Assembly (NCBI GenBank): GCA_947306705.1
Contig: CAMZHD010000001.1
Coordinates: 1-61,371, forward strand
Source: an uncultured Bacillales bacterium
GTDB lineage: Bacteria > Bacillota_I > Bacilli_A > RF39 > UBA660
Length of the DNA: 61,371 nucleotides
Reading direction: 5' to 3'
Shown: positions 1-51,460 of the stretch, one piece after another
Layout of the letters: each line of letters opens with the position of its first letter
How positions within the stretch are numbered: position 1 is the stretch's first letter
Position numbers and translations under genes: made by a program
The notes under the pieces: model-generated
What the model was told of the DNA's origin: nothing
Databases searched by the model: none
What the model saw: the letters and a program-made list of their open reading frames with translations, nothing else

Positions 1-978
1 TTAGATTGTTGTATTGGACAAATCAATGTTTGTTAGAGGTTGATCCCCTTTATATCTTAGGATTCCTTCCCATGCCCCTGAATATGGACAAACTCCTAAT
101 TCTCTTCCATTTCCATCTCCGTTGACATTATCAAAGTCTCCATGAGCTCCTACCATAAAGCCTTCTCCAATATACATTTCTGTATGCTTTGTTTCATTTA
201 ATAAAACATCTCCTGGCCGTAAATCTTCTACTTTTGGATTTCCTGGAATCCATTCAAATAGTCCCGTAGAAGTAAATGCCTTCCTCATATTATGGGTTGT
301 TTTTGCTCCTGCAGCTTTTACTCCCGTTCCGGCAGAATCCCAACAGGTAATAACGAAAGAAGAGCAATCGTAGTTTGGATTTCCATAACGAGTTTGTTGG
401 GAATATCCGTGAGTATCATCTTGAGCAATTTCAATTGCTTTTGTTAGAACTTGTCTAACAGTACCAGTAGTCGTTGGTGCTACTTCATCCACTGTAACAG
501 CATTGGTTAATTCACGAGATCCTCTTCTAATGCCTTGATAGATATTAAGATGTCCTGTTGTTTGAGCATTTGTTATGGCTGTGCTAGATCCTAAGGAAGG
601 AGTTGAGGCTGCGGCTAGTGATGCTTCAATACTTGCTTTTAATTGTTCTAATTTTTCTTGACAACTTGAAATAATTCCATAGTAGTTTGCTTTACCAGGA
701 TCATCTTCTGTTAGAGAAGATAGAGCTGCTTGGGCAGCTTGTAGTTGTTGCTTTACTTGTTTATATTCTTGATACGTTGCAACTGCACTTGCAAATGCTT
801 GCATTTGTTTTTCAATTGCAGATTTATATTCACTTAGAAAAGAAGTTGCTTGTTTCGCAATATTATCATAAGAGTCCCCTTGCCAGTTCGCATGTAATCC
901 TGTAATACATGTTTCATAGGAACTTAAGGATGTACTTAAAGAACTCATATCACTACTAATCGTACCACTACTAACCAT
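1..978 (-). CDS. WXG100-like N-terminal hairpin fused to C-terminal NlpC/P60-type peptidoglycan hydrolase (candidate T7SS substrate), copy 1
   Basis: Complete 325-aa ORF (stop at 1-3). The N-terminus ...GLHANWQGDSYDNIAKQATSF... has a W-x-G turn between helical segments, as in EsxA-type proteins, followed by a Q/A-rich coiled-coil linker. The C-terminus has NPNYDCSSFV (Cys nucleophile context) and RPGDVLL..KHTEMYIG (His), typical of NlpC/P60. No Sec signal peptide. SD AAAGGATGA lies upstream of the ATG. Confidence 0.7.
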   Translation of the reverse strand: MVSSGTISSDMSSLSTSLSSYETCITGLHANWQGDSYDNIAKQATSFLSEYKSAIEKQMQAFASAVATYQEYKQVKQQLQAAQAALSSLTEDDPGKANYYGIISSCQEKLEQLKASIEASLAAASTPSLGSSTAITNAQTTGHLNIYQGIRRGSRELTNAVTVDEVAPTTTGTVRQVLTKAIEIAQDDTHGYSQQTRYGNPNYDCSSFVITCWDSAGTGVKAAGAKTTHNMRKAFTSTGLFEWIPGNPKVEDLRPGDVLLNETKHTEMYIGEGFMVGAHGDFDNVNGDGNGRELGVCPYSGAWEGILRYKGDQPLTNIDLSNTTI

Positions 979-1002
979 ACAATCATCCTTTCTATCATCT
1001 TC

Positions 1003-1040
1003 ATTATATCATTAATAAAACTATTTTTTTAAAAAAAAAA
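1003..1040 (-). promoter_or_regulatory. Putative sigma-A promoter with extended -10 for the gene at 1-978
   Basis: The minus strand reads TGATATAAT (1011->1003) about 25 nt upstream of the ATG. A T10/A7 tract (1040->1024) sits in the -35/UP position. The leader is conserved with the copy-2 leader at 49621-49658. Confidence 0.45.
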
Positions 1041-1060: not shown

Positions 1061-1086
1061 ATAGATAGTACCGGAGTACTATCTAT
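1061..1086 (-). terminator. Hairpin downstream of the 1101-1691 gene
   Basis: Perfect 11-bp stem ATAGATAGTAC/GTACTATCTAT with a 4-nt loop. The trailing sequence on the minus strand is A/T-rich but not a clean U-tract. Confidence 0.5.
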
Positions 1087-3254: not shown

Positions 3255-3857
3255 TTATAAATCATTTCTATCTTTGATGAAACTTTTTCCTTTTTTCTTC
3301 CATTCTTGTATTGCGATTTCTCCTAATTCTTCTGGAAGAAATAATTCTGAATTTAATAGAATTCCTTTTACAAAATCATGGGAACATACATCTTCCCATT
3401 TTTCTTTTTCAGATTGTTGTTCTAGAATAGCTTCTTTTAAGGAACTATTTCTTTTTGGTTTACCTGTATTTTGGAAACGAATAGTCTCTCTTTCCAAACA
3501 AGTTTCTGGAGAACAATCTAAGTAAATCGCAATTACTTCGATTCCATTCTCTTTGAGGTTTTCCAATAATTCTTGTGAGATGGTTGGAACATATTCTGTT
3601 TCTCTACTTAATTGAACAGCATAGTGAACATCTGATAATACTACTTCTTCTCTCTTGCATTTCTTTAGAAAGTATTCATCTACTTCCTTTGAAGAGATTT
3701 CTTGAAAGATATTCTTGATTCCTCTTTCTTTTCCAAGTTCATAAAATCCATCTACTCTTCGAAAAGAAATACTGTTTGGTATTACCTTTTCTAAGTGTCT
3801 TGCCAATGTTGTTTTTCCACAAGCAGTGGGTCCCCCAATCAATATTACAGTACTCAT
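3255..3857 (-). CDS. P-loop NTPase, small-molecule or nucleoside kinase-like
   Basis: Walker A IGGPTACGKTTLARHL at the extreme N-terminus. At 200 aa it is kinase-sized. Its start overlaps the stop of the upstream gene. Confidence 0.55.
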   Translation of the reverse strand: MSTVILIGGPTACGKTTLARHLEKVIPNSISFRRVDGFYELGKERGIKNIFQEISSKEVDEYFLKKCKREEVVLSDVHYAVQLSRETEYVPTISQELLENLKENGIEVIAIYLDCSPETCLERETIRFQNTGKPKRNSSLKEAILEQQSEKEKWEDVCSHDFVKGILLNSELFLPEELGEIAIQEWKKKGKSFIKDRNDL

Positions 3858-4990
3858 AGGGTTTTCACTTTTGGTCTAATATATTCTGCAAATTCATCAT
3901 CAGGAGTTTCCTCTGTTGGATTCAATCCTTGGTAGAATTCTATTAATTCTTCTAATTTTATCTTTGGTTGATTCTCAATTTCTTGGAAATGATTTTTCAT
4001 TCGATTTCCTAATTCACCACAATAGAATACTTGATCTGGATCTAAATGAGAACGAATTGTAGAACCTAATGCATAGATTTTTTCTGTTTCTACACCTTCT
4101 CTTAGTAGTTCCTTTAATGCTTCAATTGCTTCTTCTTTCACAGATCCTTCTTTTAGGGAGAATCCTGCAATTTCTTTACTATGATCTAGATATTTTAAGT
4201 AGAAACCATACTCATCAAATAATTCAATTAAATCAATTAGGTTTTGATCAATTCTCCAACCACCACCTTGGAATACAAATACTCCTTCTTTACTTTTTTC
4301 CATCGCTTTTCTACAAAAGTTTAAATAGAATTTCAAAGAAGAAGGGCTCATCTCTAATAAGGCATGATTTGACATTGCGATATCAAATTCAATTGGTTCA
4401 TTTCTCATTTCCCATAGTTTCCAATAAGGGATATGAATACAACGAGAAGATCTATCTAAGTCTTGTGTTACAAGCTCATTTACTCCCGTTTTAGAGATTC
4501 TTTCAAATAATCGATTTTGTATTAAATAGAAGGCTTGCGTTACATCCGTTGATGCATAATTATAATCATCTTCTAGTAAGAGACATCCTAAGGTTCCAGA
4601 ACCTCCTCCTATTTCTAGTACTCTTTTTCCTTTTATATCATCTGTCGTGGATTCTAGAATTCTCTTCTCACATACAGAAGCCATCATAGGAGCTTTTACT
4701 AAGAAATGACCACCATATAGTTCTTTGGTTGCTTCAAAGATATCAATGGTTGCTTTTTTGACTAAATCAAATTCTTCTTTTGTAATTCCATTGCATAAAT
4801 CATGAAAGTGTCTTTCAAAACTATATGCATGCATACTATCAATATAACGAATTAATTCTTGTTCTTTCTCTACGTTTGTGGGAAATCCTCCATTATTAAA
4901 TGCTTTTGGTTTAAATGTTCTTATGAATCGATTGGATAATTGAATTCTTCCATCAATTTCTTTTTGATTGTAGTCTTCTATCGTTAGCAT
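3854..4990 (-). CDS. Class I SAM-dependent methyltransferase with a ~120-aa N-terminal extension
   Basis: Motif I VLEIGGGSGTLGCLLLEDD with an acidic residue after beta-2 (YASTDV). Overlaps both neighbouring genes. Confidence 0.65.
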   Translation of the reverse strand: MLTIEDYNQKEIDGRIQLSNRFIRTFKPKAFNNGGFPTNVEKEQELIRYIDSMHAYSFERHFHDLCNGITKEEFDLVKKATIDIFEATKELYGGHFLVKAPMMASVCEKRILESTTDDIKGKRVLEIGGGSGTLGCLLLEDDYNYASTDVTQAFYLIQNRLFERISKTGVNELVTQDLDRSSRCIHIPYWKLWEMRNEPIEFDIAMSNHALLEMSPSSLKFYLNFCRKAMEKSKEGVFVFQGGGWRIDQNLIDLIELFDEYGFYLKYLDHSKEIAGFSLKEGSVKEEAIEALKELLREGVETEKIYALGSTIRSHLDPDQVFYCGELGNRMKNHFQEIENQPKIKLEELIEFYQGLNPTEETPDDEFAEYIRPKVKTL

Positions 4991-5673
4991 ATTTTTTCTC
5001 CTTTCTTAGGTTTTTCTAATTCTAAACCATTCTTGTTTAGTTTATAAACTTTATCAGATATTTTCTGGATAAAACTGATTTCGTGAGAAACAATAATTAA
5101 AGTCATATCCTCTTTTCCTAATTGACTAATGAGGTTTAATACACTCTCTTTCATTTCTTCATCGAGAGCGGATGTTGGTTCATCTAATAAGATAATATCT
5201 GGTTTCATTAATATTGTTCTCGCAATGGCAACTCTTTGTTTTTGTCCACCAGATAATTCCTCTGGATATTTGTCTTTCTTTTCTAATAAATCTATTTCTT
5301 TTAAAATATTTGTTGCCATCTTAATACTTTTTTCTTTTTCAATTTTTTGAATTTGTGTTAAACCTATTGTTAAATTCTCAAGAACCGTTAAGTTTTCAAA
5401 TAAATTATAATCTTGAAATACAAAACCAATTCTTCTTCTTAATTCTGTTACTGGATAATCTATTATATTCTTTCCGTTTAAAAGGATTTCTCCAGAATCA
5501 ATTTCTTCTAATCGATTTAAACATTTTAAGAAAGTACTTTTTCCTACTCCACTTCTTCCTATGATTGAAATGATTTCTCCTTTTTTTACTTCTAGAGAAA
5601 CATTTCTAAATACCGTTTCATTTCCATAAGATTTTCCTACTTTATTAATTTTTAATACTTTTTCTCTTTTCAT
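4984..5673 (-). CDS. ABC transporter ATP-binding protein (polar amino acid type)
   Basis: Walker A GRSGVGKST, signature LSGGQKQRVAIART, Walker B ILLDEPTSALD. Confidence 0.9.
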   Translation of the reverse strand: MKREKVLKINKVGKSYGNETVFRNVSLEVKKGEIISIIGRSGVGKSTFLKCLNRLEEIDSGEILLNGKNIIDYPVTELRRRIGFVFQDYNLFENLTVLENLTIGLTQIQKIEKEKSIKMATNILKEIDLLEKKDKYPEELSGGQKQRVAIARTILMKPDIILLDEPTSALDEEMKESVLNLISQLGKEDMTLIIVSHEISFIQKISDKVYKLNKNGLELEKPKKGEKIC

Positions 5674-6431
5674 TTAGAAAACCTCCTTGGATTCATTCTT
5701 TTATCTGCATAATCTAATAATTTTCCTAGTAAGAAACAAATTAGAAAATAAATAAACGCTGTAAAGATTAATGGGAAGAAAGCTTCATAGGTTCTATTTC
5801 TTACAATATCACTTGCTTTTGTTAAATCTATAATAGAAATGTAACTCGCAATAGAAGTTAATTTAATAAGAGAAACCATTTCATTTTTATAGACTGGGAT
5901 CATATACGATAGAACTTGTGGAAGAATAATAAATCTTAATGTTTGTTTTTTTGTAAATCCCATCGAATAAGCAGAATAGATTTGATTTTTATTAATCGAT
6001 GCATAAGCTCCTTTCATTACTTCGGCAGCATAAGCAGAAAAGTAAATCGAAAAAGTTATGACTGCAACTAATACTGGATTAATGTCAATCATTCCAAAGA
6101 TTACATAATAGAAGATCAATAACAATACTGTGATCGGTATTCCTTGTAGAAGTCTAATGAAAATCGTTGTGATTTTTTGAATTGTTTTTTCTTTTCTACT
6201 AAGAATGAATAAGATAAATCCTAAGATGGTTCCAAAAAGAATGGATAATACCGATATTAATATGGTATTGGTTAATCCTTTTAAGAATATCTTGTATCGA
6301 TCTTCAAATAGTAATGTTCTATAAAAACTATTTTTAAAACTCTGTATCCCATTCCATATCATTGTATGGTTTTGATATAGGAAGATACTTAAAATCAATA
6401 GAAGAAAAAGTAGTATCATTTTCTTTTTCAT
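5670..6431 (-). CDS. Amino-acid ABC transporter permease
   Basis: Multi-TM protein with an EAA-like loop SAYSMGFTKKQTLRFIILPQ. Start set to the ATG at 6431 (MKKKMILL), 8 nt after AGGGG. The track ORF extends to 6452. Confidence 0.8.
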   Translation of the reverse strand: MKKKMILLFLLLILSIFLYQNHTMIWNGIQSFKNSFYRTLLFEDRYKIFLKGLTNTILISVLSILFGTILGFILFILSRKEKTIQKITTIFIRLLQGIPITVLLLIFYYVIFGMIDINPVLVAVITFSIYFSAYAAEVMKGAYASINKNQIYSAYSMGFTKKQTLRFIILPQVLSYMIPVYKNEMVSLIKLTSIASYISIIDLTKASDIVRNRTYEAFFPLIFTAFIYFLICFLLGKLLDYADKRMNPRRFSK

Positions 6432-6432
6432 A

Positions 6433-7215
6433 TTAAGAACCCCTAACGACAATTACAATTCCACCTGTGTAATCTGGTTCTGCGAATAAAACTGATTTTT
6501 TTCTTTCTTCTGTCACAATGATAGAAGTACCAGCCATATCTATTTTTCCAGATTTTAAGGCAGGAATAACCCCTTCAAAAGCCATATCAATAATTTCTAA
6601 TTCATATTTTAATTCTTTACAAACCATTTTTATTACTTCAATATCATACCCTACTAGTTCATTATTCTTATAATAAGCAAATGGGGCATTTCCAGATACA
6701 GCAGCAAATGTAATCTTTTTTCCATTTGTTTCATATTCATATGTGTCTAGTATTTTTTTCTCTTCATCATTTCCCATCCATTTTTCTTCTAATTTTTGTA
6801 GAGTTCCATTTTCTTTCATTTTTTTAATTTCTCTACTGATTTCTTTTTCTAACTCCGTTAGTTTTGGATTTAAGGCAAATGCATAACTATCTTCTGTTAA
6901 TTTTTCTTCTAATATTTTTAAATCTGGATGTTCTCGAAGAATCTCTTTCGCTAGAGGTTCATCTGTTAGGAAGCCATCTATTTTTCCAGATTTTAAGGCA
7001 GCAATTTGATCACTGTAACTATTATAGTATTGAGGAGTAGCTCCTTTGATATGTTCTTTTAGAATAGTATCATATTCTGAACCTGTATATACTCCAATCT
7101 TTTTATTCTCTAAATCTGTCATTGTTTGAATCGATGGCAATTCTCTTTGGCATCCTGTTACTAATACTAGAATGATTAGAATGAATAAAATGATTCCTTT
7201 ATGATTCTTTAACAT
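6433..7215 (-). CDS. Lipoprotein, family-3 (GlnH/ArtJ-like) solute-binding protein, circularly permuted
   Basis: Lipobox LVTGC. The C-terminal part KITFAAVSGNAPFAYYKNNELVGYDIEV...ALKSGKIDMAGTSIIVTEERKK matches the N-terminal lobe of GlnH-type proteins. The N-terminal part DLENKKIGVYTGSEYD...GTLQKLEEKWMG matches their C-terminal part. Confidence 0.8.
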   Translation of the reverse strand: MLKNHKGIILFILIILVLVTGCQRELPSIQTMTDLENKKIGVYTGSEYDTILKEHIKGATPQYYNSYSDQIAALKSGKIDGFLTDEPLAKEILREHPDLKILEEKLTEDSYAFALNPKLTELEKEISREIKKMKENGTLQKLEEKWMGNDEEKKILDTYEYETNGKKITFAAVSGNAPFAYYKNNELVGYDIEVIKMVCKELKYELEIIDMAFEGVIPALKSGKIDMAGTSIIVTEERKKSVLFAEPDYTGGIVIVVRGS

Positions 7216-8449
7216 ATTCTCTCTCCTTTCCTACTGCTTCTATTTTAAATTTACTAAATACATCTGTCATTTTCGCAAGAGTTTCTTCTGGTGTTTCTCC
7301 TTGAACTTGAACCCATCCAGAAGCATCATTTCCTACTCTTCTTTTCTTTTGATATTTTCCTAATTGTGCGAACATTTCTCCTCCGATGACTCCATCCATT
7401 TGTAGAAGTTCTTCTAGAGGAGTTAATTCTGTAATGATTCCTTCTTTGTTTGGTAAATATAAGTCCCCTACACTGATGATTTTATCTGGATAAGATAAGG
7501 TTACTTTATTATGAAGAGCAATATCAATTAATAGATTATAAATATCTATTCCATAAGAATAACTATGGTTTAGAGTGGATTGACATCCTGGTAATCTCCA
7601 ACCTAATTCACTAGCTTTTACTTGTCCATCTTCGGAAATGAATACTTCAATTGTCATTGCTCCATCCTTTAAATTCATTCCTGTTACAATTGTTTGAATG
7701 AACTCTTTTGGAACAAACTGGAAATACTCTGGTACTTCCGGTACTGTCATATGACAATTTAAATCATTCGCAATCGATGCCCAAATCGTTGGGTTTGGAA
7801 TATATGTTAAGTAGGAGTCTAGAACTACTCCATCTTGGACTAAACTTTCGATTGCCCATTCATGGTCTGAACAGAAATCTTCTGCCATATATTTTCCAGG
7901 TTCCCATTTAATATCTAAATTCTCGATATCTTCTAGAGAATCTATTTTATACGTATCGATACTATTCATTCCTCTTCTAGGTTTGAAGACGATTCTTTTT
8001 CCACCATTTTTTTGGAAGAATTCTATTAATTCTTCTTTTGAATCGATTGGGGTAAAGTCTACCGTATCTAGACCAATCTCACGGAATCTTTCTTTCATTT
8101 TTACTTTATCTCTTACCCATGCCGTTTGTTCTTCTGTTAATGCTTCTAATCCTAATTTAGAAGCAAATTGATTGGAATACTCTAAATAGTATTCTGAGTC
8201 ATTGAAGAAATAATCGATTTCTAGATGATTTTGTCTTAACCATTCTTGAAACTTTTTTACTTCTTCATCCATATCACCATAATAGTCTGCGACATAACAT
8301 GGAAACTTTTCAGTTTCTTTTAAGTATTCTTCCCTAAAAAACTTCATATTTTTAGTAGAACGTAAAATGATTAAGTTTATATCTTTTCTTTCCTGAAGTT
8401 TATGAGATAAGTTCGATTCATATTCTTCAAAATATAATAATGTCTTCAT
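7199..8449 (-). CDS. ATP-grasp enzyme (L-amino-acid or carboxylate-amine ligase-like), 416 aa
   Basis: ATP-grasp-type central region ...GGKRIVFKPRRGMNSIDTYKI... and overall size. Start set to the ATG at 8449 (MKTLLYF), preceded by AAGGAGAAGGA. The track ORF starts at 8491. Confidence 0.65.
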   Translation of the reverse strand: MKTLLYFEEYESNLSHKLQERKDINLIILRSTKNMKFFREEYLKETEKFPCYVADYYGDMDEEVKKFQEWLRQNHLEIDYFFNDSEYYLEYSNQFASKLGLEALTEEQTAWVRDKVKMKERFREIGLDTVDFTPIDSKEELIEFFQKNGGKRIVFKPRRGMNSIDTYKIDSLEDIENLDIKWEPGKYMAEDFCSDHEWAIESLVQDGVVLDSYLTYIPNPTIWASIANDLNCHMTVPEVPEYFQFVPKEFIQTIVTGMNLKDGAMTIEVFISEDGQVKASELGWRLPGCQSTLNHSYSYGIDIYNLLIDIALHNKVTLSYPDKIISVGDLYLPNKEGIITELTPLEELLQMDGVIGGEMFAQLGKYQKKRRVGNDASGWVQVQGETPEETLAKMTDVFSKFKIEAVGKEREYVKES

Positions 8450-8462
8450 CTTATCCTTCTCC

Positions 8463-9338
8463 TTATATTCTTTCTTTAATACTTTGAGCAAATGTATGGA
8501 TTATTTTCTTTTTGATTTTTGGATCTTCTATTTTTCTTGTCAGAAGATCGGGTTCTGTTAATTCCACTTCCATTACTTTTGCTTTTCCATTTGAGAGGAT
8601 CATGTCTACTCTCATATATAAATAATCTTTGTATTCTTCTAGTTGTTCTACTCTTTGAGCTAATTCTAATATTTCTCTTGGAACTTCTTCTACAAATTCT
8701 GTTTTTCTCTTTTCATGAAATACACTTGGAAATCGTTTCATTGTATGAGTTAGTTTTCCATTTATAAAGATACATGAATATTCTCCGTCTAGGATTCCTT
8801 CTTGATAGGGTTGAATCATAATCTTACAATCTGGATTCTCTTCTAAAATTCTATGATAGGTTTCCTCTACTGCTTCCAGTGGAATTGAATTTTTTCCTTC
8901 TCCATTGATTCGAAACGTATTTTCTCCACTTCCAGAAATCGATGGCTTTATGACGAAGGGAACTCCTTGATCCTTTTTCATAAGACTTCTTATTGAATCT
9001 TCTAATCCATCTTTTGATAAGAAGGTTGTTTCTACATGATCGATTCCATGTCTATCTAATAGTTGAAATTGTCTATCTTTTTTTATATTTTCTAAAAGAA
9101 TCTCTTTCTTATTACACATGGGCATTTTTGTATTATTTAACCAACTAATAAATTCTTGATAATGATTTTGATATCCCCAAATAGAACGAATGACTAATAA
9201 GTCATAATCCAAGATTGGTTTTTGCCAAGAAATGATATCTGCTTCTATTCCCATTTCTCTTAAAAATTCTTTAAGATTTTGATCTTCTTCTATTTTCCCT
9301 TTCCATTTATCACAGGATACAATGCCTACTTTTTTCAT
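8463..9338 (-). CDS. ATP-grasp enzyme, RimK/glutathione-synthetase-like, 291 aa
   Basis: PFVIKPSISGSGENTFRI nucleotide-binding strand and loop, C-terminal MRVDMILSNGKAKVMEVELTEP. Start is 1 nt after the upstream stop (TAAAATG). Confidence 0.65.
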   Translation of the reverse strand: MKKVGIVSCDKWKGKIEEDQNLKEFLREMGIEADIISWQKPILDYDLLVIRSIWGYQNHYQEFISWLNNTKMPMCNKKEILLENIKKDRQFQLLDRHGIDHVETTFLSKDGLEDSIRSLMKKDQGVPFVIKPSISGSGENTFRINGEGKNSIPLEAVEETYHRILEENPDCKIMIQPYQEGILDGEYSCIFINGKLTHTMKRFPSVFHEKRKTEFVEEVPREILELAQRVEQLEEYKDYLYMRVDMILSNGKAKVMEVELTEPDLLTRKIEDPKIKKKIIHTFAQSIKERI

Positions 9339-9339
9339 T

Positions 9340-10866
9340 TTATTTCAACTTCCTTAAACATTTATTCATGGCACCCATGTGATCAACTAATTCATCTCTT
9401 TCAAGGGCAGATGTTACTCTACCCACTAATTGATCTGTGTTTGGAAAGGAAATGGATTGACCTAAGATAATCTTTATTTTTTGTTGTTCATACATATATT
9501 TTAATAATTCTAATTCTGAAGTAATGACTCTTCCATCTGCTTCTTTATTTTTTAATTCCGTATAATCTAATAATTCAAAGAATCCTGAGTCAGGGATTGT
9601 TCCTTTTACGAAATGAACTCCTGGGATTCCTTCTAATAATTCTCCTGGATTTAAATCAGAAGAAGCATATCTCCTAATATCTTTTTCTACTTCTCTTCTG
9701 ATTCTAGGATCTTCAATGCAGTCTATTCCTTCTACTAATCCTTTTAATAATTCTAATCGATACTTATATTCTTCAATAATTGGATTGAAATAATTCTCAT
9801 ATGCTTGGTATCTCTCTGGAGATGCATTAAAAGCTGCTCCTAAAGCGACTCCTTGTAGTAAAGGAGAAGAATCCATATTTTGGAATATATAATTACGGAT
9901 TCCACGGATAATGGTTTCATCTGCGATTACCATTCCAGATCTTAGGGAAGCTAATCCATAACACTTAGATAATCCTGTAATAGATATTGTATTTCGAAAG
10001 AATTTTTCAAAAGAAGCCATTGGTAGAGATAAATCCTCTCTATCATATGTTAAGTCTCGATAAATCATATCATCGATTACAAATACTCCTTTTTCTAAAC
10101 AAACATCTCCTATTTTTTCTACTAATTCTTTCTTTTTACCATTCATTACTTTTCCTAATGGATTGTGTGGATTTTCATTTAGAAATGCTACAACTCTAGG
10201 AGTGTAATCTAATTTTCCTTCAAATTTCTTTTTTAACTCGGCATTTAACTCATCAATTCTTTTTGATAATTTTTCTGGATTTACATACCAATCATCTTCT
10301 TCGGATAAAGGTAATATTTCTACAGTAGCCCCTGAACTACGTTCTGGAACAAATGTGAATAATCCATAGTTAGGTCCTGTCATTAAAACAACGTCATAGG
10401 GTCTTGCGATTAAATTCATAATAATATTAAATGCTTGTGTCGTAGATACCGTAAAAATAACATTATTCTCATTTAAACCATTTGGGCTTTTGAATCCTTC
10501 TTTTTCTAGATACTCAACGATTCTTTTTCTAGATTCTTCATCTCCTGCGGCTAGTGGATATTCATACATATTATCCATTTCTATTAAGTCAATCATTGCC
10601 TTTTTACAAGGTTCAAAGATTTTTGTCTTCATAGGGCTTCCCCCACCAAGAGATTTCGTTTCCATTCCTCTGATTCTTTCATTTTCTAATTGATAGAGTT
10701 CGTTTCCATAAATAGAAAATGCATCATATATTCTTTTTACTTCTGGAGAAAATGGTTCTTTATCTGCTCGTGCTCCTAGATTTGGTAATCCTCTTACTTT
10801 ATATCTTAAAGATGGATTTTCTTCTAGAAATCTTTCAATTGAATCAATCTTATCCATGTTTCTCAC
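9340..10866 (-). CDS. PLP-dependent aminotransferase, class I/II fold, with a ~100-aa N-terminal extension
   Basis: NPHNPLG motif, DDMIYRDL, and a Schiff-base lysine context ITGLSKCYGLASLRSG. An alternative start is 9 nt downstream. Confidence 0.8.
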   Translation of the reverse strand: MRNMDKIDSIERFLEENPSLRYKVRGLPNLGARADKEPFSPEVKRIYDAFSIYGNELYQLENERIRGMETKSLGGGSPMKTKIFEPCKKAMIDLIEMDNMYEYPLAAGDEESRKRIVEYLEKEGFKSPNGLNENNVIFTVSTTQAFNIIMNLIARPYDVVLMTGPNYGLFTFVPERSSGATVEILPLSEEDDWYVNPEKLSKRIDELNAELKKKFEGKLDYTPRVVAFLNENPHNPLGKVMNGKKKELVEKIGDVCLEKGVFVIDDMIYRDLTYDREDLSLPMASFEKFFRNTISITGLSKCYGLASLRSGMVIADETIIRGIRNYIFQNMDSSPLLQGVALGAAFNASPERYQAYENYFNPIIEEYKYRLELLKGLVEGIDCIEDPRIRREVEKDIRRYASSDLNPGELLEGIPGVHFVKGTIPDSGFFELLDYTELKNKEADGRVITSELELLKYMYEQQKIKIILGQSISFPNTDQLVGRVTSALERDELVDHMGAMNKCLRKLK

Positions 10867-12679
10867 CTCTTTTTTTACAATATTCTTTTGCTTTTTCTAA
10901 TTCTTCTTCATATTCTTTTTGTACTTCTGGATCATCTGAATGAAGATACGTATCTATGGTTCCATCTTTAAACACTCTTATGAACCAGTCATAGGTACAT
11001 GTTGTGTAATCTTCTTCTTTCCCAGAAATTTGTCCATAATAATAAATCATACTTTCTCTTGTCGTTTCTTGAAACTTTGCAAATCTCAAGGAGATTAATA
11101 TTTTCTCTATTTCTCTATAATTATAATCATTTCCATCATGACGAGTTCTTTTAAAGATTTGATTGGTTTGATCACTATAAAGAGTATCTGGAATATATAA
11201 TTTTAAATCATGAATGGTTTTTTCTTCTTTTAAAGATACTAATCCTTGATAGGAATCAATTCCATTATAATATTGATGATTATCCTTTAGAATGGGATTA
11301 ATAATAAATGGTAATCTATTTTGATTATATGGAATTGTATTTTGATTGGTTAATCCGATAATAGAACCGATTAATTCAGGATCTTGATTTACAATTTCTT
11401 CTAATGCTTGTTTTACTGCTTCATAAAGTTTTCTACCTAGAATTTCATTTGGTACTCTTTTACTGGTTTCAATTCCTTGGGCTACTAGTACATTTCCATT
11501 TCTCATGAGTAATACCATACCAAAGTCTTTGTACTCTTCTGTTGAGATGGATAATAATCTCATATGAGGATTCGTTAAGAAATTATTAAAAAGAATAAAA
11601 GCATCTCCATTAATTCTAAAACAGTTTCCTGCTCGATATCCCATGACTAAGTTTCTTGGATCTTTTAAAGGAATCATTTCAAATGAATAATTTCCAATTT
11701 TCGGAATATCCACCTTTTTAATAGAAGACTTTGTCTTTTGTTTTAGTTTATCATTGTATGCTTGTAAATTCTTATCTATTACTTTTGATTCTTTCTCTGT
11801 AATATCATATTTATGATAATAAGAAGAAATCATATCTTGTAGAATATCTCCACTTAATTCTGGATTTTCTAATCTAGGAGATAAATATCTTTCTTTTAAT
11901 AATAAAATCACTTTGTTTCTATTTAGTTTATTTCCTAGTTTCTCTATAAATGCTTCTAAGGAATTATAGAAATAATCAAAGTTTAGGAATATTTCATTTA
12001 ATTCTCCTGAAAGCATTAATCTCATTGTATTATTTTGATCTTTTTTATTTCCAAATAAGAATTCTTGGAATACTTCTGTCTTTTCTCTTTTAGGATTTAA
12101 GTTTCCAAATAAGAAATGAATTGTTTCATAATCTACTTCTCCATATTTATTGGATAATAAATCAATTGAATTATTTAATCCAATAGAGAGAATCATTTTT
12201 ATTGCGATTCTTCTGATTTCTTCTTCTACTGGATGAGGAACTCTTTTTAATTTCCATTCTGGTCTTTCTTCTACACTCTTTTTAATAGGTAATTCTGAAT
12301 TAGAGTATTCTATGTTTTGTATCAAATTACTAATATATTTAATCTGTCTTTCTGGCACTTCAAAATAATCAGATGCTTGAATGGAATCGTCTGATAGAGA
12401 AACTTCACTTTTCTTTAAGAAGTTAATTAAATCATAAATATCTTTTGATTTCAAAGTATTCAATAATTCATCATATTCATTACTATGAAGAGTATGCATA
12501 AATAATCGGTAAAAATCTCTTGGCATTGATGTTCCATAATAATGATCTAAAAAGTATTTTAAAAGAGTAATATCTTCATAGGGAACTCTTGATAAAATTA
12601 AGTATAATTCAAAGATGTGAAAACTATTTAATTTCTTCTTACTTAAATTGTATAATCTTTGTTTTGCATTGGTTTTCAT
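10850..12679 (-). CDS. Hypothetical 609-aa cytoplasmic protein, first gene of the operon
   Basis: Long ORF with no motif I can assign. Start set to the second ATG (12679), after a GAGG SD. It overlaps the aminotransferase start by 17 nt. Confidence 0.45.
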   Translation of the reverse strand: MKTNAKQRLYNLSKKKLNSFHIFELYLILSRVPYEDITLLKYFLDHYYGTSMPRDFYRLFMHTLHSNEYDELLNTLKSKDIYDLINFLKKSEVSLSDDSIQASDYFEVPERQIKYISNLIQNIEYSNSELPIKKSVEERPEWKLKRVPHPVEEEIRRIAIKMILSIGLNNSIDLLSNKYGEVDYETIHFLFGNLNPKREKTEVFQEFLFGNKKDQNNTMRLMLSGELNEIFLNFDYFYNSLEAFIEKLGNKLNRNKVILLLKERYLSPRLENPELSGDILQDMISSYYHKYDITEKESKVIDKNLQAYNDKLKQKTKSSIKKVDIPKIGNYSFEMIPLKDPRNLVMGYRAGNCFRINGDAFILFNNFLTNPHMRLLSISTEEYKDFGMVLLMRNGNVLVAQGIETSKRVPNEILGRKLYEAVKQALEEIVNQDPELIGSIIGLTNQNTIPYNQNRLPFIINPILKDNHQYYNGIDSYQGLVSLKEEKTIHDLKLYIPDTLYSDQTNQIFKRTRHDGNDYNYREIEKILISLRFAKFQETTRESMIYYYGQISGKEEDYTTCTYDWFIRVFKDGTIDTYLHSDDPEVQKEYEEELEKAKEYCKKRGEKHG

Positions 12680-12701
12680 GGAACCCCTCATTCGGCTTCC
12701 T

Positions 12702-12735
12702 ATTATACCACAAAATAAAAAGAATTCAAACTATG
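12702..12735 (-). promoter_or_regulatory. Putative sigma-A promoter of the 10-gene operon
   Basis: The minus strand reads TTGAAT-16 nt-TATAAT with a TGG extension (TGGTATAAT, 12710->12702). The -35 lies inside the upstream terminator stem. Confidence 0.5.
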
Positions 12736-12745
12736 AATTCTTTTT
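12711..12745 (-). terminator. Rho-independent terminator of the surface-protein gene
   Basis: 7-bp stem AGAATTC/GAATTCT (12721-12741) with the stop codon in the loop. The minus strand continues TTTTTATTTTG. Confidence 0.6.
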
Positions 12746-15700
12746 ACTTGTATATTTCATCATAATCATAAATCCACTGATTAGTAAGATACTTGCGATG
12801 ATCTTAGAGATGAATCCTTTGGTTGCGAATGTATCAGGAGCTACAATACCTTCTCTTGCTCTTACGGTTACTAGTACTTGAACATCTTGTCCAGCAAATT
12901 GAATGGTTACTGTTTGCTCTCCTACTTTGGAAGAATCAAATCCTGATACTGTATATTGTCCTGGATAATCTGCCAATTCAACATTACTTGTTTCGCCATC
13001 GTCATATTGAAGTTTTAGAATCAATCCAGAAACATCAAAGGAATCTCCTTGTACATAAGATGTGATTTCAGGTTGTTGGATGATTTCTGCACTTGTAACA
13101 TTTCCAATGTCATAATCTTCTTCTGGTTCTTCTTCTTGATTATAAATAGTGACTTTAAAGGTTGTTTCAAATCCTTTATAAAGAACACGAAGAGTTTGCT
13201 CTCCTAACTTTGAATTATCAAAGTCTAATACCGTTATTTCACTATTGGTCATTTCTATTTCTTCTGTAGAATTATCTGATTTAGTGACTGTGATTTTTCC
13301 ACCATTCAGATTTAAGTTCTCTTGATATTGTTTATAGTTTCTTTGAGATGGAACTTGAGTGACTTCAATCTTTTGGATTTTTACTTCTGCTTTTGATACT
13401 GTTACTGTGAATGTTGCGGTTTTCTCTTGATATTTTACGGTAATTGTCTTGTTTCCTTCTTCTGTACTAGAGAATCCTGATACGGTAACATTACTATTAC
13501 TCATATCGATGATTTCATATTCTATCGTTGTAGTTTCTCCCACTGTTTTATTATATTTGGCTTTTATCTTTCCACCAGTTAGTACTAGTTCTTCTCCAAT
13601 TAAATAACTTGTTTTATTTGGATTACTATAAACTGTTATACTATCAAGAGTTTTTACTTCTGTTGGATCTGGTGCACTATTTACGATTATTTCCATTGTT
13701 GCTGATTTTCCACCAACTGTTAACGTAACGGTTTTCGTTCCTGCTGTTGCGGAATCAAATCCCGTAACTGTTACACTTTGATCAGTCATATCTACATTTG
13801 ATGTCATTCCATTATTGTAGGTTTTGATAATTTCTCCACCTGTTAGATTTAGAGATTCTCCTACTTGATAAACTATCTTACTTGGATATTGTCCTATATG
13901 AATTGATTTTAATTCTACAGTTGTTACAACTACAGTAAAGGAAGTCGTTTTTTCTTGATAAGTAACTTGGATAGTTTGTTCTCCTGCTGTATTTATATTA
14001 TATCCTGATACCGTTACTTCACTATTAGACATACTAATATCTTTTGTGGAATTATCAGAATACGTTACTTTGATAACTCCTCCTGCTACACTTAATTCTT
14101 CTCCTACAAAGTAACTTGTTTTTGTTGGATTTGTTTTTACAGAGATAGAAGTAATCGTAATTGCATTGACTGTTACTTGGAAGGAAGTAGATTTTCCTTT
14201 ATACGTAACGTTAATCGTTTGATCTCCTACTTTATTCGCATCATATCCTGTAATGGATACACCACTATCTTTCATCGAAATATCTTCTGTGTCTCCATTA
14301 CTCTTGGTTACGGTAATCACTCCTCCTGTAACATCTAATGTTTCTTTTTGAAGATAAGTAGTTTTTGTTGGATTTGTTTTTACTGTGATTTTTGTAATCT
14401 CTGTGATTACTTTTTCAGGTCTTAAAATGACATAAGCATCTTTTCCAAATAATGTTTGATAATTTGCATAATTATAATTTGTATCACTAGCTGGTCCATC
14501 AAATAAATATGTTTCAAGTGCTAAATTATTATTTGTATAATATTCTTTTGTAAATTCATTTCTCTTATAAGAATTATCTTTATGATTGACTCCTACAAAT
14601 TTTCCATTTTCTCCATTTGCATCTGTTAAATAGATAAATGCATATAGACCATTTTCTTTTGTATAACGTAAAGCTTCTTTTGTACTAGCTTTATCCATTG
14701 AATAGATTAATACATCTCCTACTTTAAAGTGACCAGATGCGATTGTATTTGCTCTATTAATTCCAGAAATATAGGTTCCCTTATTTTTTCCTCTCCAATT
14801 TGGGAATACATAATAATATTCGGTAGAACTCTTTTCTACTTTCGTTAACTTATTCCAATAATTATTTAGAATCATGTCTGTATAGATTTTATAATCTCCT
14901 GCAGTATTTAATTGAACCCGACTTGCTTTACCGGAAGGAACACTCATCATTTTATTCAAATAATCTCCATTAGAAGGACCAAACTTCGTGAAAGAAAAAG
15001 GTAAATCTTCTCCATATACACATTCATATGTTTTTTGAATTAAAGATAAAGATGAATATTTGCTTTTTAAATTATTATAACAAGTTCTATATTCAGCATC
15101 TGTTTTCGAAGTTGTATTAATAATTTCATGACGAACGGTACTTGTTTTAATAAAATAGTTTTCATCTAATGCATAGTTTTTATCTATTACATATACTTTT
15201 CCTTCTGCATTGATAAATTTTCCAATATTAGCAGTATCATTCTTTACTTTTACTTTGTATTTTAAGACAATCTCTTGGGTAGGCTCTAACTTTGTAATTT
15301 TCCAAGTAATGGTTCTTGTATTAGCATCATAAGTTCCTTTCTGAGAATCATCTATGGATGATGCTACATAATCAACTTCTGGTGGTAGAGTTTCTTTTAC
15401 ATAAAATTCTTTATAAGTAGACTTCTTACTTGTTCCATTGATTACAGAAAGATTACTATTGTTTATAATTCGAATTGTATATGTTATTGGATCATTTAAT
15501 ACGACACTATTATTATCATATTTTGAAGATGTTTTTGCGATAAAGATTCCAGGTAAATGTAATCTAGCTTTACTTGTTCTTTGATTTTCTGGCCAAGCAA
15601 TGTCATAATTGAAAACTGCTTTTCCATCAGAACCTTTATAGAAGGCTCTTGTAATAGAACACATATTCGTTGTGCAAGCAACAATTCCATCATTTACAAA

Positions 15701-16522: not shown

Positions 16523-16541
16523 ATATTATCACCTTATTATT

Positions 16542-16570
16542 ATCATAGAATAAATGTAAACTTTTATCAA
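16542..16570 (-). promoter_or_regulatory. Putative sigma-A promoter of the surface-protein gene
   Basis: The minus strand reads TTGATA (16570->16565)-17 nt-TATGAT (16547->16542). SD AAGGTGA precedes the ATG at 16522. Confidence 0.55.
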
Positions 16571-16583
16571 TCTTTCTGTCAAA

Positions 16584-16610
16584 CAAAAAAAGAAGTTTAC
16601 ACTTCTTTTT
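16584..16610 (-). terminator. Rho-independent terminator of the 1170-aa gene
   Basis: Stem AGAAGT/ACTTCT with loop TTAC. The minus strand continues TTTTTTTGTTTG. It overlaps the stop codon. Confidence 0.7.
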
Positions 16611-20121: not shown

Positions 20122-20220
20122 TTCCACTACCCTCCATAGTATATTATCTCATACTTAAAAGAACAGTACAAATAAATATTACTTAACTCTTTAAGATTTA
20201 ATATAACCTAGTTTTATCAA

Positions 20221-36484: not shown

Positions 36485-36503
36485 GTGATCAACCCCATTA
36501 TGA

Positions 36504-36541
36504 TTATAAGAATTATCCCATAGGAGGGATAATTCTTATAA
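36504..36541 (-). other. Perfect 16-bp intra-operon RNA stem-loop between the small-subunit gene and the peptidase gene
   Basis: TTATAAGAATTATCCC-ATAGGA-GGGATAATTCTTATAA. No U-tract follows on the minus strand. Confidence 0.7.
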
Positions 36542-36549
36542 TACTCGGA

Positions 36550-37101: not shown

Positions 37102-37123
37102 ATTCTCCTCCAATCTTATCTTT

Positions 37124-37153
37124 ATTTTATCATTGTCTTTTTTTTCATGTAAA
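37124..37153 (-). promoter_or_regulatory. Putative sigma-A promoter of the fibre operon
   Basis: The minus strand reads TTTACA (37153->37148)-18 nt-TAAAAT with a TG extension (TGATAAAAT, 37132->37124). Confidence 0.45.
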
Positions 37154-37163
37154 TAAAATGCAA

Positions 37164-37205
37164 GAAAAAAAAAGAATAGTGTACTATACTTTACACTATT
37201 TTTTT
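37164..37205 (-). terminator. Rho-independent terminator of the HTH gene
   Basis: Stem AATAGTGTA/TACACTATT with an 8-nt loop. The minus strand continues TTCTTTTTTTTT. Confidence 0.75.
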
Positions 37206-37713: not shown

Positions 37714-37785
37714 AAATGTCCCCTCCTTGGCGACCAAATGGTTTTCTTTTTACGATATTATTATACCAGAAAAGGAGAGAGGATT

Positions 37786-48606: not shown

Positions 48607-49623
48607 CTATATTTGTTTTTCTTCTTGTTTATCCTCTTCATCTTTGGATACCCCTTGTTCTCCTACATAGTGTAGAAAACGATATCCTTTTCCATTTCCT
48701 CTTGCGCTGATGTATTGATCAATACTACATTCCCCTACACCGTTCGTAATATATTTAGAAGAGTGAATCATTTTTCCATCTCCTAAATATAATCCTACGT
48801 GATAACAGTTTTCTGCAGCGGAATGATATCCAGCCGTATCCCCTTTATTTACAAAGCATACAATATCTCCTGGTTGTGCTTCGCTGGCATCTACTTCTAT
48901 GAATCCTTTATTGTATGCATCAAAATTATCTTTTGTAACATTTCCCCAATAGTTCTTGCAGCTTCCATAGAAACCACCGTTTCCTTTTTCTTGGGCACTT
49001 GCTCCATTGAATAGTACATTGTTGTAGCAGTAACTAACAAACATGGCACATCCAAATCCTTGATTATCTCCATCTTTTGGCCCATAATGCATACTATTAT
49101 AGGGTTGTCCTATTTGAGATCTTGCATAATCAATTAATTGTTCTATCTGTTGTGGTGTTAATTCTCCTCCTGAAATAATTGGATCTAATGGAATTGAAAT
49201 TCCGGAAGCTCCTGAGACTCCATCAGTCGAAAGTATTCCTGAAATAGAGTTTAGTAATGATTCTATTTCACTCTTTAGACTTTGTAGTTTTTGATTACAA
49301 GCTTCTATTTCACTGGCTAGTCTACTTAATTCTTTTTGATTCTCACGACTATTGGCAATTGCTTGATAAGCAGCTTCTGCTGCTTCTTTTTGACTTTTTA
49401 CTTCTTTATATTCTGTGTATAGATCGCAGGCAGCTGAAAAAGCATTCATTTCTTTTTCAATCATAGAAATGAATTCAGATTGAAATACATCCACTTGATT
49501 CGATAAATTGGTATAGGAATCTCCTTTCCAATTTCCTGATAATCCGGTGATTTCGCTCGTGTACTGGTTCATATAAGTTTTAACAGAACTTAGATCGCTA
49601 TTAACGACTCCTCCAGATACCAT
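48607..49623 (-). CDS. WXG100-like N-terminal hairpin fused to C-terminal NlpC/P60-type hydrolase, copy 2
   Basis: ...GLSGNWKGDSYTNLSNQVDVF... (W-x-G), a coiled-coil linker, GFGCAMFVSYCY (Cys), and QPGDIVCF...CYHVGLYLGDGKMIHSS (His). No signal peptide. Confidence 0.7.
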   Translation of the reverse strand: MVSGGVVNSDLSSVKTYMNQYTSEITGLSGNWKGDSYTNLSNQVDVFQSEFISMIEKEMNAFSAACDLYTEYKEVKSQKEAAEAAYQAIANSRENQKELSRLASEIEACNQKLQSLKSEIESLLNSISGILSTDGVSGASGISIPLDPIISGGELTPQQIEQLIDYARSQIGQPYNSMHYGPKDGDNQGFGCAMFVSYCYNNVLFNGASAQEKGNGGFYGSCKNYWGNVTKDNFDAYNKGFIEVDASEAQPGDIVCFVNKGDTAGYHSAAENCYHVGLYLGDGKMIHSSKYITNGVGECSIDQYISARGNGKGYRFLHYVGEQGVSKDEEDKQEEKQI

Positions 49624-49649
49624 AATTCATCCTACTCTCTATCATTATC

Positions 49650-49678
49650 ATTTTATCAAAAAAGGGTTTTTCATACAA
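49650..49678 (-). promoter_or_regulatory. Putative sigma-A promoter of the five-gene operon
   Basis: The minus strand reads TTGTAT (49678->49673)-17 nt-TAAAAT with a TG extension (TGATAAAAT, 49658->49650). Confidence 0.55.
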
Positions 49679-50737: not shown

Positions 50738-50768
50738 TAAAAAAGGACTTTATTAAAGTCCTTTATTT
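50738..50768. terminator. Bidirectional terminator ending the T7SS-like operon
   Basis: Stem AAAGGACTT/AAGTCCTTT with a 5-nt loop containing the stop of the 75-aa gene, flanked by A and T runs. Confidence 0.7.
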
Positions 50769-50980
50769 AATTGATCTTTTAAATCAGCTAATGCATCATC
50801 TGCATCTCGATTAATCTCAATTGTATTTTCTAAAAATTTTGTATATCCTTCTACGGTTGCAGCAAAATCTGTAAGTTCTTGGATATTTCTATTTTTTACT
50901 AATGAATCAATGATTTCTGCTTGTGCTTTTAGTTCTTGCGCTATATCGAAAACTTCATCATAAGATAACTTATCAATCAT
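50753..50980 (-). CDS. Small all-helical protein (75 aa), T7SS-operon member
   Basis: Predicted helix-turn-helix hairpin. No Trp and no WXG. Its start overlaps the upstream stop (ATGATTGA). Confidence 0.5.
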   Translation of the reverse strand: MIDKLSYDEVFDIAQELKAQAEIIDSLVKNRNIQELTDFAATVEGYTKFLENTIEINRDADDALADLKDQLNKGL

Positions 50981-51188
50981 CGCCTAACGCCTCCAAACTT
51001 TCAGAATTTGCATTGACTTCTACAGGAGATTCTTTAAACACTTCTGCTTTTAGTGCGACAATTTGTTTATACTCTTCAATTGTTTCGATGTAGTTTAAAT
51101 TATCTAAACTATTCCAGCCAGCTTTCATCTTAGCGACATAATCAAATATCTTATTGATTGCGGTTACATATTGATTATACTCTGACAT
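50973..51188 (-). CDS. Small all-helical protein (71 aa), T7SS-operon member
   Basis: Helical with an acidic C-terminus. It has KAGWNS rather than a canonical central W-x-G. Confidence 0.5.
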   Translation of the reverse strand: MSEYNQYVTAINKIFDYVAKMKAGWNSLDNLNYIETIEEYKQIVALKAEVFKESPVEVNANSESLEALGDD

Positions 51189-51199
51189 AGTATTCCTCC

Positions 51200-51460
51200 T
51201 TATAGTAGTATGATTCTTGATCCATTCTTTAAATCAGTATCTCTTACATTTTGATTAACATCATAGATAGAACCATCATCTTTATTATAAAAGTTTGTAT
51301 CACTTTTAATTAGATAAGCTCCATCTGATAATTCTACTAATGCTTTTTCTAGTAGGGATTTAATTGTTCCTACTTTTTTATTGATAGGAATAAATAAATC
51401 ATATTTCTTTTCAATAATTGGGATTTCTAATTCAATTAATATTTTATTCTTATTGTTCAT
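51200..51460 (-). CDS. esaB: YukD/EsaB-family ubiquitin-like T7SS protein
   Basis: 86 aa. ILIELEIPIIEKKYDLFIPINKKVGTIKSLL...LKNGSRIILL matches the beta-grasp YukD pattern. Located immediately after essC. Confidence 0.75.
   Translation of the reverse strand: MNNKNKILIELEIPIIEKKYDLFIPINKKVGTIKSLLEKALVELSDGAYLIKSDTNFYNKDDGSIYDVNQNVRDTDLKNGSRIILL

Follow-up and report, generated by a model that had tools for sequence, protein, structure and literature searches.

Type VIIb secretion systems (T7SSb) are known for small WXG100 proteins and for LXG toxins that act inside target cells or on their membrane. Here we describe two genes whose products join a WXG-type N-terminal domain (N-domain) to a murein hydrolase, together with an essC gene, on a 61,371-bp stretch of DNA (the window) that is a complete metagenomic contig (CAMZHD010000001.1, from an uncultured Bacillales bacterium) and whose sequence is also present in bovine, goat and sheep gut metagenomes. 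An earlier annotation made from the letters alone (the sequence-only reading) had drawn attention to the two genes as copies of each other, and the names copy 1 and copy 2 are kept here as labels. The reading that we favour, and hold to be likely although well short of certain, is that both are T7SSb-exported murein hydrolases with the N-domain as export module, most likely acting on the producer's own wall.

The LXG toxins with Lap or WXG100-like partners, such as TelA-D of Streptococcus intermedius and EsaD of Staphylococcus aureus with EsxB/C/D, offer the first comparison. As in those systems, the proteins described here lack a signal peptide, begin with a helical targeting domain that has a motif at its turn and continue through a linker into an exchangeable C-terminal enzyme, while small helical partner genes are found in the cluster and essC nearby. 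Unlike LXG toxins, which have a targeting domain of about 200 residues, they have an N-domain of about 125 residues that matches WXG100 rather than the LXG hidden Markov model (HMM), their payloads are almost only wall hydrolases, neither an adjacent immunity gene nor a DUF4176 chaperone accompanies them, and their clusters occupy a conserved position beside murJ and femAB.

RipA/RipC, CwlO and PcsB have a similar layout, in which a long helical N-domain precedes a papain-like hydrolase at the C-terminus. Those proteins bear a Sec or Tat signal and act under the control of FtsEX or SteAB, whereas the present ones lack a signal peptide, have no ftsEX in their vicinity and carry an invariant WxG. 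Secretion-system cargo directed against peptidoglycan or its precursor is likewise represented by the Tae/Tge effectors of type VI secretion systems (T6SS) and by TelC of type VII secretion systems (T7SS); these come with dedicated periplasmic or extracellular immunity proteins (TipC for TelC), unlike the genes in the 11 clusters considered here. Actinobacterial T7SSa effectors with Tap partners (the arabinanase EatA and predicted NlpC/P60 payloads in M. abscessus) and the PE/PPE-enzyme fusions share with our proteins a PPE-like helical N-domain, small partner genes and an envelope-degrading payload, NlpC/P60 included. However, they belong to Mycobacteriales and have adjacent immunity proteins with lipoprotein signals or transmembrane helices, and the likeness is by fold only, with no sequence kinship shown.

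EssH of S. aureus, a CHAP hydrolase, is the case to which the sequence-only reading had turned. It too is a papain-like murein hydrolase encoded beside T7SSb genes, and its presumed task is to make an opening in the wall for the apparatus or for substrates. The analogy is functional only; EssH is not described as a T7SS substrate, is taken as Sec-exported and has no WXG domain, whereas the hydrolases described here carry the module themselves. According to T7SSb reviews (2023, 2026), close homologs of EssH are restricted to staphylococci, no other locus-encoded hydrolase has an established functional link to T7SSb, and the passage of substrates across the thick Gram-positive wall is unresolved; in them the wall-related substrate is TelC, a lipid II phosphatase for which TipC provides immunity, and EssH is a separately exported helper. 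A census of polymorphic toxins (2012) found Tox-NlpC/P60 only with T6SS, PVC and Tc systems and not with WXG/LXG, and a 2026 study predicted NlpC/P60 payloads behind helical bundles in mycobacterial T7SSa, with immunity proteins. In the literature searched, whose coverage left subscription journals outside, we met no account of a WXG-type module of T7SSb that is reserved for murein hydrolases.

Two signal-less wall hydrolases with a WXG-type N-domain

The open reading frames (ORFs), motifs and upstream strings quoted in the sequence-only reading all proved exact, so that the underlying observation is real at the positions collected in Table 1. The stop codon of copy 1 is the first triplet of the window (positions 1-3). 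Both proteins start with MVS(S/G)G and have W-x-G at residues 32-34, within HANWQGDSY in copy 1 and SGNWKGDSY in copy 2. Neither has a Sec signal, as had been claimed: over the first 50 residues the Kyte-Doolittle mean of 15-residue stretches peaks at about 0.5, and the first ten contain neither lysine nor arginine. It was also correct that W-x-G sits on the hydrolases rather than on small Esx proteins, since none of the window ORFs of 60-130 residues contains it, and no small WXG100 gene lies next to either hydrolase gene in the window.

The catalytic parts are those of papain-like enzymes. Copy 2 is an NlpC/P60 protein, as announced (NLPC_P60, PF00877, 38.4 bits for a cutoff of 23), but copy 1 stays under the same cutoff (20.9 bits) and belongs instead to ELLD, the 'endolysin-like domain' (PF25309, 44.3 bits, cutoff 27, E = 2.3e-11). 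The catalytic cysteine and histidines are in family-invariant contexts in both proteins (C205, H265 and H279 in copy 1; C192, H275 and H287 in copy 2), and in copy 1 the three columns are invariant in 26 homologs. The AlphaFold model of full-length copy 1 has a predicted local distance difference test score (pLDDT) of 80, and in Foldseek its C-terminal core matches the endolysin Lys2972, MepS and the RipA-type protein Cg1735. By modelled fold and conserved catalytic residues, both proteins are predicted Cys-His-His peptidoglycan hydrolases, either amidases or endopeptidases.

Modelled alone with AlphaFold2 (AF2) from 35 homologs, the N-domain is a confident structure (pLDDT 93.5) of three helices (residues 4-30, 35-88 and 96-125), with WxG placed precisely at the turn between helices 1 and 2. 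It was previously described as an EsxA-like hairpin fused directly to the enzyme. The helix-turn-helix with W-x-G at the turn, which characterizes WXG100 proteins, is indeed there; their stand-alone size of about 100 residues is not, as the two proteins have 325 and 338 residues, a third helix and a fused enzyme. The fusion is not direct either, because the third helix is followed by a low-confidence linker of about 25-45 residues (pLDDT below 50 for residues 131-155 in the copy 1 model). Invariant positions in the N-domain are M1, W32, G34, S36, A65, Y69 and Y72, and throughout the family WxG and the MVS at the N-terminus vary little or not at all.

The kinship of the window proteins with WXG100 is carried by the family as a whole and not by their own scores, which are sub-threshold (see below). 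Twenty-three of the 35 family N-domains match PF06013 at E <= 0.01 (the best at 5e-7), as do 25 of the 97 full-length representatives considered in the next section, and one ortholog, from the relative L022, passes the Pfam cutoff (27.4 bits, cutoff 27.3). A profile of the N-domain run against the sequences of the PDB aligned several EsxA and EsxB chains in register (E = 0.03-1), while Foldseek with the N-domain alone gave PPE15 as best match (probability 0.98) and also PPE4 (TM-score 0.74). LXG membership was rejected, there being no match to the corresponding HMM in the window proteins or among the families listed for the 35 N-domains. The N-domain is a WXG100-superfamily module of PPE/LXG-like shape and not a bare EsxA-like hairpin. 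Because this WXG100-related domain is combined with the lack of a Sec signal, we take both proteins to be probable cargo of the T7SS.

The two genes are not copies of one gene, since their N-domains are homologous but their catalytic domains belong to different families. Compared by domain, the first 128 residues are 42% identical (E = 1.5e-30), whereas the C-terminal parts show 20% identity over 100 residues (E = 0.027); over the full length the BLASTP figure is 28%. A duplication of the whole gene was rejected on this ground and because the Pfam families differ. What the two have in common is the N-domain module and a promoter-proximal motif, which does not support the notion, as worded, of two copies whose promoter was duplicated with the gene.

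The N-domain family and its gene clusters in relatives

Searched against 1.84 billion representative proteins, the N-domain profile found only 269 clusters, and the match always begins at residue 1. Full-length homologs occur only in uncultured gut Bacilli, Erysipelotrichaceae and 'Mollicutes' metagenome-assembled genomes. The Pfam payloads of 97 full-length representatives are NlpC/P60 (18), Peptidase_C39_2 (14), CHAP (11), Peptidase_C39 (11), ELLD (9), Peptidase_C70 (8), M23 (8), M15 (7), phage-type lysozyme (3), glucosaminidase (2), Amidase_5 (2) and NAGPA (1), with a few alpha/beta esterases; the nucleases, NADases, deaminases and pore formers that are the usual LXG payloads are absent from these 97. 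Conversely, the catalytic domain of copy 2 is found behind at least four other signal-less helical N-termini. As judged from this distribution, the N-domain is an exchangeable, lineage-specific cassette used almost only for putatively wall-active enzymes. Between copy 2 and its ortholog in the relative L012 (10001-11002) identity is only 44% in the N-domain and 79% in the catalytic core, while the two EssC proteins are 93% identical, which points to an export module that is either fast-evolving or swapped among paralogs.

In relatives, the homologs of copy 1 lie in a conserved cluster that starts with a murJ-like gene and one or two WXG-ELLD hydrolases, continues with signal-less enzymes (esterase, C39-like, lysozyme, glucosaminidase) bearing the same or other helical N-domains, and ends with three WXG100 genes of about 95-105 codons followed by femAB on the opposite strand. 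Among the species-level genome loci surveyed by tblastn, 13 have a full-length homolog; the three WXG100 genes are 2-6 kb downstream of the hydrolase in 12 of them and the murJ-like gene is upstream in nine. In L022 the linkage extends to the secretion motor, for hydrolases, the three WXG100 genes, essC, a yukD-like gene and small ORFs of about 100 codons follow one another in one direction, with a murD-like gene and femAB just upstream of the cluster. Across 11 clusters, no non-nested gene with a transmembrane or signal segment was found that could be a candidate for extracytoplasmic immunity.

Two further observations were made in these loci. Six ORFs of about 100 codons follow essC in L022 (the 93-aa yukD-like ORF and then five). 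Other signal-less helical N-domains, beginning MNEY..., MS/AxF...E..., MADEKF... or MSDYT..., occur in L010 (3828-10499), L008 (7381-12305) and L022 (9989-20407), where they are fused to C39-like, lysozyme, glucosaminidase, NlpC/P60 and ELLD enzymes.

The same data bear on the idea that the hydrolases are remnants of prophage or conjugative-element lysins whose helical N-termini are a coincidence. Phage tail lysins match copy 1 in the catalytic domain with 36-40% identity, its Pfam family is named 'endolysin-like domain', and T4SS_pilin is a Pfam match in some homologs of the catalytic domain of copy 2. Yet only the catalytic domain is matched, whether by tail lysins or by C40 peptidases, the N-domain being in no phage or plasmid record searched; the surroundings consist of chromosomal housekeeping genes, none of them a phage or conjugation gene, and synteny is kept across species. 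A prophage or plasmid origin was rejected on the first of these grounds, and we regard the idea as a whole as most improbable.

The essC operon and the surroundings of the two genes

The window encodes an EssC with a forkhead-associated (FHA) domain and three FtsK-like ATPase domains, as expected of T7SSb, and scores 997 bits on TIGR03928 (cutoff 778, E = 1.3e-299). Its operon has four genes, essC being followed by three that encode proteins of 86, 71 and 75 residues (50753..51460). The relative L012 shares this minimal operon of four genes, in which the small proteins are 83-90% conserved. The 71-residue protein is marked by an invariant turn, GWN[SNG]xDNxNY, and by LEALG[DN]D, also invariant, at its C-terminus, and belongs to a highly conserved, unannotated family of at least 167 clusters at 63-82% identity. 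It resembles a degenerate small substrate of WXG100 type with a putative C-terminal export tail. It has no Pfam match, and a link to WXG100 or to the hydrolase N-domain was rejected for that reason and for an hhalign probability of 0.1%.

Copy 2 forms a separate unit 1.1 kb beyond the essC operon. The Abi_2 gene that starts 9 nt after its stop codon and the HtrA-like protease gene that follows are probably co-transcribed with it. The hydrolase-Abi_2-HtrA trio and its arrangement with essC are retained in L012, with 90% identity for Abi_2 and 62% for the hydrolase. Between the essC operon and copy 2 there is also a signal-less gene (49744-50736), convergent with essC, that encodes a Zn-dependent phospholipase C-like domain; it is kept in L012 (76% identical), where it stands beside a SpoIID-like gene.

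Copy 1, which lies behind a LysR regulator gene and a 196-aa gene, ends the contig. Its 85%-identical homolog (L094) has these same neighbours and both contigs stop right after the gene, that of L094 running 68 nt beyond the stop codon, where a terminator hairpin is followed by the first codons of an ORF (MNKKH...). When metagenome contigs were scanned for the gene beyond copy 1, by exact pattern and by protein, neither scan found anything. In metagenomes, unitig depth increases 3-4 fold over positions of about 200-370, inside the catalytic core of copy 1, which together with the contig ends would fit paralogs or strains that share this stretch and break the assembly.

A probable shared promoter signature

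Upstream of both genes the order of elements is the same: a TG-extended -10 (TGATATAAT and TGATAAAAT), then (A/G)ATGATAGA, then a Shine-Dalgarno (SD)-like AGGA. The upstream strings can be aligned as had been reported, with 28 of the 35 nt before the ATG identical (80%), against 65% in the DNA that encodes the N-domains and 51% in the next 100 nt upstream. The motif occurs exactly at these two sites and nowhere else in the window, a test that is partly circular because the pattern was derived from the sites themselves. More telling is its conservation elsewhere. It is kept upstream of the 62%-identical ortholog of copy 2, in L012 and L013, and of the first cluster gene in relatives, and it also precedes substrate-like genes with a different type of N-domain; 12 of the 13 matches to the regular expression in 286 kb sit upstream of substrate-like genes, a count that is again partly circular. 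The earlier proposal that the extended -10, leader and SD were simply duplicated with the gene is not supported as it stood, since the catalytic domains differ and the motif is also found before genes with another N-domain. It is likely instead that these elements are a shared and constrained promoter signature of putative substrate genes and not a mere by-product of gene duplication, and the presence of the ATAG-containing motif before other substrate operons of the lineage suggests that they may be expressed in common.

Upstream of copy 1, the AT-rich inverted repeat behind the 196-aa gene was read directly from the sequence; a scan for consensus terminators, which needs more G-C pairs, did not call it. 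It is probably a terminator that would make copy 1 its own transcription unit.

Table 1. Positions in the window of the two hydrolase genes, the essC operon and associated elements
Feature	Position	Strand	Remarks
Copy 1 coding sequence	1..978	minus	325 aa: WXG-type N-domain, linker, ELLD-type papain-like hydrolase
Copy 1 N-terminal export-type domain (putative)	604..978	minus	residues 1-125, from AF2 and alignment; W32-x-G34 at nt 877-885
Copy 1 linker	472..603	minus	residues ~126-169; length varies among homologs, indel-rich alignment columns
Copy 1 catalytic domain	46..471	minus	residues ~170-311; Cys205 at nt 364-366, His265 at nt 184-186, His279 at nt 142-144
Copy 1 promoter and leader (putative)	979..1032	minus	TG-extended -10 TGATATAAT (1011-1003), weak -35 TTAAAA (1032-1027), shared GATGATAGA motif, SD-like AAGGA (~990-986)
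AT-rich inverted repeat	1061..1086	minus	ATAGATAGTAC-TCCG-GTACTATCTAT; after the upstream 196-aa gene
HtrA-like protease gene	46614-47681	minus	38-nt overlap with the Abi_2 gene at its start
Abi_2 gene	47644-48597	minus	starts 9 nt after copy 2 stop; AbiD/F-like, cytoplasmic
Copy 2 coding sequence	48607..49623	minus	338 aa: WXG-type N-domain, linker, NlpC/P60 hydrolase
Copy 2 N-domain	49249-49623	minus	W32-x-G34 at nt 49522-49530
Copy 2 catalytic part	~48664-49146	minus	Cys192 at 49048-49050, His275 at 48799-48801, His287 at 48763-48765
Copy 2 promoter and leader (putative)	49624..49658	minus	TG-extended -10 TGATAAAAT (49658-49650), shared AATGATAGAG motif, SD-like TAGGA
Bidirectional terminator-like hairpin	50742..50764	.	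closes the essC operon, separates it from the copy 2 unit
75-aa gene	50753-50980	minus	essC operon; candidate small substrate or targeting partner
71-aa gene	50973-51188	minus	essC operon; candidate small substrate or targeting partner
86-aa gene	51200-51460	minus	essC operon; ubiquitin/YukD-like by inspection only
essC	51472..56049	minus	FHA domain and three FtsK/SpoIIIE ATPase domains; T7SSb motor, presumed exporter

Proposed export through EssC

These elements can be assembled into a model. Both hydrolases would be made without a Sec signal and exported by the EssC-driven type VIIb system of the same window, with the three-helix N-domain of about 125 residues as the putative export module. 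This domain would probably complete a helical bundle with small helical partners, for which the three WXG100 proteins of about 100 residues in relatives and the 71- and 75-residue proteins of the essC operon in the window are candidates, and the bundle would be recognised by EssC, by analogy with LXG-Lap and PE-PPE pairs. The flexible linker would join this module to the papain-like enzyme, of ELLD type in copy 1 and of NlpC/P60 type in copy 2, which once outside the membrane could cleave stem peptides of peptidoglycan. The suggestion in the sequence-only reading that the proteins are T7SS cargo is thus upheld by inference, through the WXG100-related N-domain, the missing Sec signal, the EssC encoded in the window, the conserved essC-hydrolase synteny and the adjacent WXG100 genes in relatives.

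A number of observations weigh against this reading. On PF06013, copy 2 scores 14.1 bits (cutoff 27.3, E = 0.06) and on TIGR03930 19 bits (cutoff 44.85, E = 0.0012), while copy 1 matches TIGR03930 only, below threshold (E = 0.18). As is common with helical bundles, the Foldseek matches of the N-domain have weak E-values (0.2-2). In Pfam, the window proteins have no match to LXG (PF04740) at E <= 1, and LXG is missing among the 25 of 54 matched families that were listed for the 35 N-domains. The 71- and 75-residue proteins have no detectable link to WXG100, and no ORF scanned in the 61-kb window matches EsaA, EssA or EssB in Pfam or NCBIfam, which leaves either a pared-down T7SSb or one whose EsaA, EssA and EssB are encoded elsewhere in the genome. 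Copy 1 is 47 kb from essC, and it follows a LysR regulator gene and the 196-aa gene, not murJ/femAB. As to expression, the upstream regions of the two genes rank about 7th among 1485 pairs of 45-nt upstream regions in the window, so that the weight of their similarity comes from its conservation in orthologs and not from this rank; the regular expression was built from the sites it finds; and three metatranscriptome runs gave no coverage of the locus, the sequence being in DNA runs only. Finally, the shuffling of modules and the arrays of paralogs would fit a polymorphic weapon as well, a point to which we return below.

To these must be added the resemblance of the whole proteins to RipA and RipC, which are exported by Sec or Tat, a resemblance as great as that to a T7SS substrate. 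Foldseek with the whole model of copy 1 has Cg1735, a RipA-type coiled coil with NlpC/P60, as top match (E = 1.5e-3), the matches as a whole being dominated by coiled-coil hydrolases and BAR-like helices, and copy 2 matches the RipC model NF038345 over the coiled coil and the start of the catalytic part (E = 1.3e-13). It could be, then, that the proteins are not T7SS substrates and that the N-domain serves as a coiled coil for regulation or autoinhibition, like those of RipA/RipC, CwlO and PcsB, with the enzymes getting to the wall in some other way (holin-like release, lysis or an unrecognised signal) and essC being linked to them by coincidence; the sub-threshold WXG100 scores and the distance of copy 1 from essC would be in keeping with this. 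However, the score of copy 2 on NF038345 is 51 bits for a cutoff of 425, and no FtsE- or FtsX-like gene was found among the scanned neighbours of either gene, so that, with the signal peptide also missing, an FtsEX-controlled protein of RipC/CwlO type was rejected. The more general form of this explanation also has to face the invariant WxG at the turn of helices 1 and 2, the match of the N-domain family to the WXG100 HMM and the WXG100 genes that are systematically adjacent in relatives, with essC added in L022. Because of the absent signal peptide, the invariant WxG and the gene linkage, we consider it improbable.

Own wall or neighbouring cells

Of the possible targets of T7SSb-exported hydrolases, the producer's own wall is favoured because all payloads are wall-active, immunity genes are missing and the clusters hold a conserved position among genes of wall synthesis. 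The enzymes would serve growth, separation or turnover of the wall, and possibly open it for the T7SS itself.

Alternatively, they may be antibacterial effectors that the T7SS delivers to neighbouring Gram-positive bacteria in order to lyse them, while the producer is shielded by its own wall chemistry, such as FemAB-type cross-bridges, and not by an immunity protein. The immunity factors to lysostaphin and zoocin, which act through FemAB-type changes of the cross-bridge, are a parallel. Such a role would account for an N-domain that sits on many payloads and for payloads that sit on at least four types of N-domain, a shuffling typical of polymorphic effectors, as well as for the paralog arrays in relatives; M23, CHAP and lysozyme payloads resemble bacteriolysins, femAB is at the edge of the cluster in most loci (there are two in L010), and the N-domain diverges fast (44% between orthologs, against 93% for EssC). 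Moreover, antagonism is the best-known role of T7SSb, and T7SSa loci with NlpC/P60 payloads are predicted toxins. On the other hand, exported or membrane-bound immunity-like genes number zero in the 11 clusters and the Abi_2 protein encoded downstream of copy 2 is cytoplasmic, the clusters stay at a conserved chromosomal site among housekeeping wall genes in species that are 35-65% identical, no orphan toxin or immunity cassettes were seen, and copy 2 shows good conservation of its catalytic core from one species to another (79%). We hold a role as weapons to be rather unlikely.

Whichever the target, a T7SS-type module found almost solely on murein hydrolases offers a direct handle on the question of how substrates cross the wall. 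Should the enzymes act on the producer's own wall, the T7SS would take on a housekeeping function in growth or division of the wall; should they act on neighbours, they would be a new class of bacteriolytic T7SSb effectors that works without protein immunity. In either case the N-domain profile would be a compact and testable export tag, and the enzymes a source of lytic activities from bacteria of the ruminant and human gut. Going one step beyond own-wall action, we put forward, as a tentative possibility, that a pared-down T7SSb (EssC, the YukD-like protein and two proteins of about 70 residues, with no EsaA, EssA or EssB alongside) may have a housekeeping role as the dedicated export route for a whole range of the cell's own autolysins, in which amidases, endopeptidases, M23 and M15 enzymes, lysozymes, glucosaminidases and esterases would share one WXG-type tag and be co-expressed from a common promoter motif. 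Were this true, the exported hydrolases would explain how T7SSb substrates pass through a thick wall without EsaA.

Other genes of the window

Three other regions of the window deserve mention. Genes running in one direction at 3854-12691 encode two ATP-grasp/L-amino-acid-ligase-like proteins, an aminotransferase, an unassigned 613-residue protein and an amino-acid ABC transporter, and may form a small pathway of peptide synthesis or amino-acid ligation. They are followed at 12731-20127 by two very large ORFs, of 1263 codons, with six Big_3 repeats and a GBS104-like tip-pilin Ig domain, and of 1172 codons, without a Pfam match, whose products are probably surface adhesins. Finally, a cluster at 32056-37737, which comprises an S26 signal-peptidase-like gene, a DUF5305 gene, a gene for a 753-residue protein and two ORFs of about 180 codons without a Pfam match, is reminiscent of SipW-dependent fibre loci.

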